Of a stretch of 5,353 nt of DNA, positions 2,542-2,990 are shown one piece after another. The position numbers were made by a program, and so were the translations under genes. The notes under the pieces are model-generated. The model made no database searches and was not told the DNA's origin. It worked only from the letters and a program-made list of their open reading frames with translations. The stretch lies in NCBI RefSeq assembly GCF_003334815.1, contig NZ_QOWO01000073.1, one strand, 5' to 3'. How positions within the stretch are numbered: position 1 is the first letter of the stretch; every line of letters starts with the position of its first letter. The DNA comes from Escherichia coli. Its GTDB lineage: Bacteria > Pseudomonadota > Gammaproteobacteria > Enterobacterales > Enterobacteriaceae.

Positions 2542-2715
2542 CCTCTCCTTGAACATAACAATTCCCTGAATGTATGTGGGTCTATTAGTAGTTCATTTTA
2601 TAACACCACTTTACAGGAAACCGTGACATGAATAACTACTGAATGCGAGCGGTTTTCCAAAATTGTTCATTTGCCTGATTTTTCAGCGATTGAAACTACA
2701 CGTTGCAATTTGCCG

Positions 2716-2744
2716 TTGACACATTCGGGCGGAATTCATATGAT
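2716..2744 (+). promoter_or_regulatory. Sigma70 promoter for tRNA-Ala (-35 TTGACA at 2716..2721, 17-bp spacer, -10 TATGAT at 2739..2744, GC-rich discriminator GCCGCCC)
   Basis: Consensus -35, optimal spacer, 5/6 -10, then a GC-rich discriminator typical of stringently controlled stable-RNA promoters. Predicted start about 25 nt upstream of the mature tRNA 5' end at 2777. Confidence 0.6.
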
Positions 2745-2776
2745 GCCGCCCGTCAACTCGACAAGCTTTACGTGAC

Positions 2777-2852
2777 GGGGCTATAGCTCAGCTGGGAGAG
2801 CGCTTGCATGGCATGCAAGAGGTCAGCGGTTCGATCCCGCTTAGCTCCACCA
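2777..2852 (+). tRNA. alaX: tRNA-Ala (anticodon GGC), 76 nt including encoded CCA
   Basis: Cloverleaf: acceptor GGGGCTA/TAGCTCC with the G3:U70 wobble pair that is the tRNA-Ala identity element, D-arm GCTC-AGCTGGGAGA-GCGC, anticodon stem CTTGC/GCAAG with loop ATGGCAT (anticodon GGC), T-arm with TTCGATC loop, discriminator A, CCA. Only one copy is present, so alaX versus alaW cannot be distinguished from sequence. Confidence 0.93.
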
Positions 2853-2861
2853 AATTTCCAA

Positions 2862-2887
2862 CCCTCGCTGCAAAGCGGGGGTTTTTT
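2862..2887 (+). terminator. Rho-independent terminator after tRNA-Ala
   Basis: 8-bp GC-rich stem (2862..2869 CCCTCGCT with 2874..2881 AGCGGGGG, one G-U pair), GCAA tetraloop (2870..2873), then T6 (2882..2887). Begins 10 nt after the tRNA CCA. Confidence 0.75.
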
Positions 2888-2990
2888 GTCTCTGCTTTTT
2901 GCCGCTTTTGTAATACAGTCTACGTCCGGGTTAGTGCCGCCTGGTGAAAGCATCATTGGATGAAAAATCGGCAACAGGCTGGCCCCCTGT

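Follow-up and report, generated by a model that had tools for sequence, protein, structure and literature searches.

A single tRNA-Ala(GGC) gene in place of the alaX-alaW pair in a K-12-type Escherichia coli contig: an exact one-unit contraction and its possible origins

The interval between yfeC and pdeA of Escherichia coli K-12 is expected to hold a tandem pair of tRNA-Ala(GGC) genes, alaX and alaW. The stretch of E. coli DNA analysed here (5,353 nucleotides, referred to as the window) has one such gene at this position. The first-pass annotation of the window pointed to this difference from the K-12 pair and offered a recombinational collapse of the tandem repeat or a lineage that had never duplicated the gene as explanations. 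It also cautioned that the repeat could have been collapsed by the assembler. The locus raises the question of what exactly is missing, and of whether the loss took place in the bacterium or in the assembly of its genome.

From the open reading frames and the annotation of public records with the same sequence, the gene order of the window is valU, gltX, yfeD, yfeC, tRNA-Ala, pdeA (yfeA) and the end of an IS186 element (Table 1). Two tRNA genes are recognized by ARAGORN, tRNA-Val(UAC) and tRNA-Ala(GGC), and both are confirmed by Rfam. The longest open reading frame of pdeA begins with a GTG at 2944 (2944..5250, 768 aa), and the public annotation places the start at the ATG at 3061. The IS186 copy between pdeA and nupC belongs to K-12 and is lacking in strains such as H14. 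In O157:H7, the gltX-yfeD interval contains an IS200/IS605 tnpA that is truncated and a TnpB (InsQ) gene that is intact (L002 423..2064 in 2017C-4109; L006 906..2547 in EDL933). Neither is present in the window.

Table 1. Features of the alaWX region in the 5,353-nt window, with the evidence for each.
Feature	Position	Strand	Evidence	Remarks
tRNA-Val(UAC)	2..77	-	ARAGORN, Rfam	window left end
gltX	336..1751		ORF list, annotation of identical records	
yfeC	2197..2556	-	ORF list, K-12 annotation	upstream of tRNA-Ala, divergent
sigma-70 promoter	2716..2744	+	consensus scan, 11/12 positions	TTGACA-17 nt-TATGAT
tRNA-Ala(GGC)	2777..2852	+	ARAGORN, Rfam, alignment	intact, sole copy, between yfeC and pdeA (yfeA)
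retained 81-nt repeat copy	2777..2857	+	W3110 comparison	76-nt tRNA + AATTT
intrinsic terminator	2860..2893	+	scan, fold, alignment	stem 10 bp, loop 4 nt, then TTTTGTCTCT
pdeA (yfeA)	3061..5250	+		729 aa; downstream of tRNA-Ala; start as in MC1061, W3110
IS186 terminal 78-79 nt ("IS4-like IS421 family")	5275..5353	.		window right end

The single tRNA-Ala(GGC) gene is intact. Positions 2777..2849 score 63 bits against Rfam RF00005, for which the gathering score is 29, and the cloverleaf carries the anticodon GGC at positions 34-36. The sequence, GGGGCUA...UAGCUCCACCA, contains a G3:U70 pair, A73 and an encoded CCA, as read off the letters. The G3:U70 pair and A73 are the identity elements recognized by alanyl-tRNA synthetase (AlaRS). 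In the alignment with H14 and W3110, all 76 of the 76 nucleotides are the same as those of both alaX and alaW, so that the retained gene matches either member of the pair equally.

The promoter, which had been described as strong, is near-consensus (11 of 12 positions) and is the alaX promoter of two-copy strains without a base change; the flank is also the same in H14 and 2017C-4109. A GC-rich stretch, GCCGCCCG, follows the promoter and may be a discriminator of the kind seen in stable-RNA promoters. The terminator hairpin (2860..2883) is followed by the T run and folds at -17.2 kcal/mol (z = -3.54), a fold matched by none of 200 shuffled sequences. It is the terminator downstream of alaW, again without a base change. 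The terminator had been placed 10 nt after the CCA; the hairpin was found as described and the distance is 7 nt, a trivial correction. Judged from its sequence, the locus is a complete one-gene operon with the promoter of alaX and the terminator of alaW. As the gene is intact and retains its own promoter and terminator, normal expression and processing of the remaining tRNA should be expected. The transcript from the locus would yield one tRNA, not two.

The comparison with K-12 defines what is missing. The expectation of a tandem pair between yfeC and pdeA proved correct: in W3110, DH10B, J53 and JW5437-1 alike, this interval holds a pair of tRNA-Ala genes with 39 nt between them. The alignment to reference E. 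coli, which had been proposed as a check, returned a single clean gap of 115 columns against a two-copy strain, with the rest unchanged. This gap is one exact repeat unit: the period of alaX/alaW in W3110 is 115 bp (the 76-nt tRNA and the 39-nt spacer). In the two W3110 copies, the tRNA and the AATTT after it make up a perfect direct repeat of 81 nt. Positions 2..5353 of the window equal W3110 less one 115-bp unit, exactly, and the aligned sequence shows 100% identity with MG1655, W3110, DH1 and J53. No remnant of the inter-tRNA spacer TTTTGCACCCAGCAAACTTGGTACGTAAACGCATCGT was found within the window with up to 3 mismatches tolerated, in keeping with the single gene detected by ARAGORN and Rfam. 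The join lies inside 2777..2857 and is scarless.

The window is thus the K-12 alaX-alaW pair contracted by one 115-bp unit. One exact period is missing, the parent sequence has perfect direct repeats, and there is no other change; an exact one-period gap without a scar indicates loss through misaligned identical 81-nt repeats. The likeness to the K-12 operon extends to the locus (yfeC/tRNA/pdeA), the promoter, the tRNA sequence and the terminator. The position, promoter and terminator of alaWX are kept, whereas the two genes of K-12 are reduced to one, and the spacer (39 nt) is gone along with one copy of the gene (76 nt). A table in PMC4678842, which names alaW alone for W3110, suggested a single tRNA-Ala gene in that strain and brought it into consideration as the source of the window. 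This was rejected, since the W3110 RefSeq record has two; both alaX and alaW are listed for Sakai in the same source (PMC4678842). A search for literature comparing W3110 and MG1655 on tRNA-Ala found nothing, and alanine tRNA genes are not mentioned in PMC9981150.

The copy number at this locus was surveyed in 5,426 complete E. coli genomes, all of which are matched by a 1,201-nt query for the locus. Almost all of these matches extend over approximately 1,315 nt and hold two annotated tRNA-Ala genes. The single-copy state was scored where a 196-nt query, made of the tRNA with 60 nt upstream and 60 nt downstream, was contiguous in the genome. The single-copy junction was present in 133 of the 5,426 genomes (2.5%), and the inter-tRNA spacer in 5,291, leaving 135 without it. 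Three or more copies, scored by a contiguous spacer-tRNA-spacer query, were found in 51 genomes (0.9%), examples being NZ_CP081489.1, NZ_CP007799.1 and NZ_CP038394.1. The two-copy state accounts for about 97% of the genomes. Among the matches listed, the single-copy backgrounds comprise EDL933 (three assemblies), ATCC 43894, Xuzhou21, MC1061, OV2, KO11FL and pig ETEC. EDL933 (NZ_CP008957.1), MC1061, OV2, KO11FL and Xuzhou21 share the window junction over the 196 nt tested. MC1061 and OV2 differ from the window at its left end, having three tRNA-Val copies and a T where window base 1 is G.

Several of the genomes with at least three copies are laboratory strains from one submitter, namely BL21(DE3), Rosetta2, BL21-RIPL and XL10-Gold. 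The copy numbers in this set may reflect assembly behaviour and not biology.

Two origins for the contraction deserve serious weight. The first, which is favoured here at slightly better than even chances, is that the two copies were collapsed in a short-read assembly and that the source strain itself probably has two tRNA-Ala copies. It would most likely have been in the assembler that the identical 81-nt repeats were misaligned. It appears that the window could be a contig of a short-read de Bruijn graph, built with a k of approximately 77 from a K-12 strain of the J53/BW25113 type. A k of this size is shorter than the 81-nt repeat, and the two copies would not be separable by k-mers; the loop through the spacer would then be skipped.

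The ends of the window resemble the ends of short-read contigs. Both lie inside repeats, the left in 77 nt of tRNA-Val sequence and the right in 78-79 nt of IS186; no single k fits both exactly. The terminal 79 nt are the same as in the IS186 copy near dnaJ; for the copy near hokE, the identity covers 78 nt. The window therefore looks like a short-read contig with an apparent k of 77-79, which the 81-nt repeat exceeds. The early caution about assembly collapse was well placed, because the ends have this appearance, and collapse is judged to be somewhat more probable than a true loss. Against it, the right end is closer to k = 79 than to k = 77, and the estimate of k is rough. SPAdes-type assemblers at k = 77 often traverse a simple loop correctly.

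The left end also indicates the type of strain. Positions 1..77 consist of the base G and the tRNA-Val gene, and this 77-mer is found at valX and valY. Here, the 5′ flank of valU adjoins the valX/valY-type 77-mer, which makes a valX/valU hybrid junction. The hybrid corresponds to a 122-bp loss that reduces valUXY from three copies to two. A contiguous match to it occurs in 133 of the 5,426 complete genomes, among them numerous independent J53 assemblies and JW5437-1 of the Keio collection. As it recurs in so many independent assemblies, the contraction of valUXY in J53 is clearly real, and the hybrid can serve to mark the lineage of certain K-12 laboratory strains. The hybrid 78-mer (window 1..78) is present in J53 and JW5437-1, and is not found in W3110, MC1061 or DH10B. 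The junction at window 1..78 appears to be that of the J53/BW25113 type. Like the alaWX contraction, it is the loss of one repeat unit between identical tRNA copies; it differs in affecting another tRNA array and in its length (122 bp against 115 bp). With a two-copy Val array, an assembler working at k = 77 would be expected to start a contig at window base 1.

Strains of this type appear to have two tRNA-Ala genes in the complete genomes compared. J53 and JW5437-1, the Val-hybrid strains inspected in detail, carry two each. More than 25 genomes of the J53/BW25113 type match the window over approximately 5,590 nt, the length expected for two tRNA-Ala genes, and so appear to be two-copy. No complete genome inspected carries the Val hybrid alongside a lone tRNA-Ala gene. 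Among single-Ala genomes of K-12 size, ECCTRSRTH03, TUM2820, 300490 and strain 167 are all without the Val hybrid and have three or four Val copies each. In strain 167 (NZ_CM132937.1; L147 344..861), which has one tRNA-Ala gene, a tandem array of four tRNA-Val genes precedes lysV; this four-copy array indicates that valUXY also expands.

Metagenome contigs provide a further argument for collapse. An exact-match scan for the single-copy junction returned 12 contigs, six of which reach valUXY. Four of these six also have a contracted Val array, and two of the four retain one Val gene out of three, placed next to lysV. Joint contraction of the Ala and Val arrays at this frequency is far above what independent real events at about 2.5% per array would give, which points to the collapse of tandem tRNA arrays in short-read assembly. 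SPAdes-style metagenome contigs are alike in this respect, the Ala and Val arrays being collapsed together.

A human gut contig, UEPH01006137.1, also has a deviation within pdeA. Approximately 311 nt of the gene are missing (window 4396..4706), and the join, at about L010 4466..4475, has an overlap of roughly 10 nt.

The second origin, to which a probability somewhat below even is given, is that the contraction is real and took place in the cell. Slippage or unequal sister-chromosome exchange at the 81-nt repeats would have removed the 115-bp unit, and the tRNA-Ala(GGC) gene dosage of the strain would be halved. The form of the loss fits either replication slippage or unequal sister-chromosome exchange: short tandem repeats that contract in this way lose exactly one period and leave reciprocal three-copy alleles in the population. 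The instability of tandem repeats in E. coli has reportedly been a subject of the Lovett laboratory. One point for this origin, which equally counts against collapse, is that the single-copy allele is real in complete genomes of unrelated backgrounds, including the three EDL933 assemblies, ATCC 43894, KO11FL and pig ETEC. The complete genome of MC1061 (NZ_CP195014.1) has one tRNA-Ala gene and is 100% identical to window 2..5353 in one piece. The genomes with at least three copies represent the reciprocal expansion that unequal exchange predicts. The adjacent valUXY array shows the same behaviour, with its real loss from three copies to two and one strain with four Val copies. It has also been reported that tRNA gene numbers differ by plus or minus one among E. 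coli strains (PMC4539685), and loss and duplication are among the standard routes by which tRNA gene sets change (PMC7661048).

Several observations weigh against a loss in the cell. The allele is rare in the K-12 family, being confined among the matches listed to MC1061 and OV2, two strains of a single project. Inheritance of the loss within the MC1061 lineage was considered and rejected, as DH10B, a descendant of MC1061, has two copies. The absence of the Val hybrid together with a single tRNA-Ala gene from the complete genomes inspected, and the short-read appearance of the window ends, also count against this origin. Some genomes with deviating copy numbers fall into groups from one submitter, such as the BL21, Rosetta and XL10 set. 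This grouping is a hint that assembly error accounts for part of the 133 genomes with one copy and of the 51 with three or more.

A more elaborate form of the in-cell loss is improbable. It would hold that the loss is real and that alaWX, like valUXY, is a fast-switching copy-number locus at which selection tunes the dosage of tRNA-Ala(GGC). Under this reading, single units would be gained and lost often enough for such tuning, in 1-3% of strains and even in laboratory stocks.

Deliberate deletion, for instance to obtain a strain with fewer tRNA genes, is very unlikely. A scarless one-copy state could be engineered in principle, but the window has no scar, marker, FRT site, vector sequence or recoding, and the published alaWX deletion removed the whole unit and inserted a kanamycin cassette (PMC11480407).

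The proposal that the lineage never duplicated the gene, which has nothing in its favour beyond the single copy itself, is refuted by the 100% K-12 identity of the window, K-12 being two-copy, by the spacer in 5,291 of the 5,426 E. coli genomes, and by the occurrence of the tandem pair, its tRNA ends identical, in at least 120 further species of Enterobacterales. These species include members of Salmonella, Citrobacter, Klebsiella, Pectobacterium and Providencia; Edwardsiella has three tRNA-Ala copies. The distribution of the pair across Enterobacterales indicates that the duplication is old and that the single copy is derived. Of the two explanations first offered, the collapse of a tandem repeat is the one upheld, by the exact period and the perfect repeats.

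Should the one-copy state be real, the gene dosage of the GCC-reading tRNA would be roughly halved, and an effect on the decoding of GCC and GCU codons is plausible. Deletion of the entire alaWX unit is tolerated, since the cmo5U34-modified tRNA-Ala(UGC) can read all four GCN codons (PMC11480407). The full deletion nevertheless clearly impairs growth in minimal medium and alters the expression of approximately 530 genes (PMC11480407). As growth is slowed when both copies are removed (PMC11480407), a mild dosage effect of a single copy is conceivable.

On either of the two leading origins, the finding is an ordinary one: an artefact of assembly in the first case, and in the second an allele that public genomes such as EDL933 already carry. 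Differences of plus or minus one copy in tandem tRNA arrays are already known for E. coli (PMC4539685). The practical meaning lies in the caution that short-read assemblies undercount tandem tRNA arrays. Differences in the copy number of alaWX or valUXY should be checked against the reads before they are interpreted.

Two single records were noted beside the survey of the chromosomal locus. NZ_CP098226.1, a 50-kb "plasmid" of strain Z0117EC0005, carries at about 22940..23736 a yfeC-like gene and a tRNA-Ala gene with the alaX-alaW spacer; the record contains either a piece of chromosome on a plasmid or a contig that was wrongly assigned. In BL21(RP) (NZ_CP084683.1), which has an odd arrangement, the spacer-tRNA-spacer query matches in two pieces at about 4490856..4490999, a site annotated as tRNA-Gly. 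This match lies far from alaWX, and the native alaWX locus of the strain has one copy.
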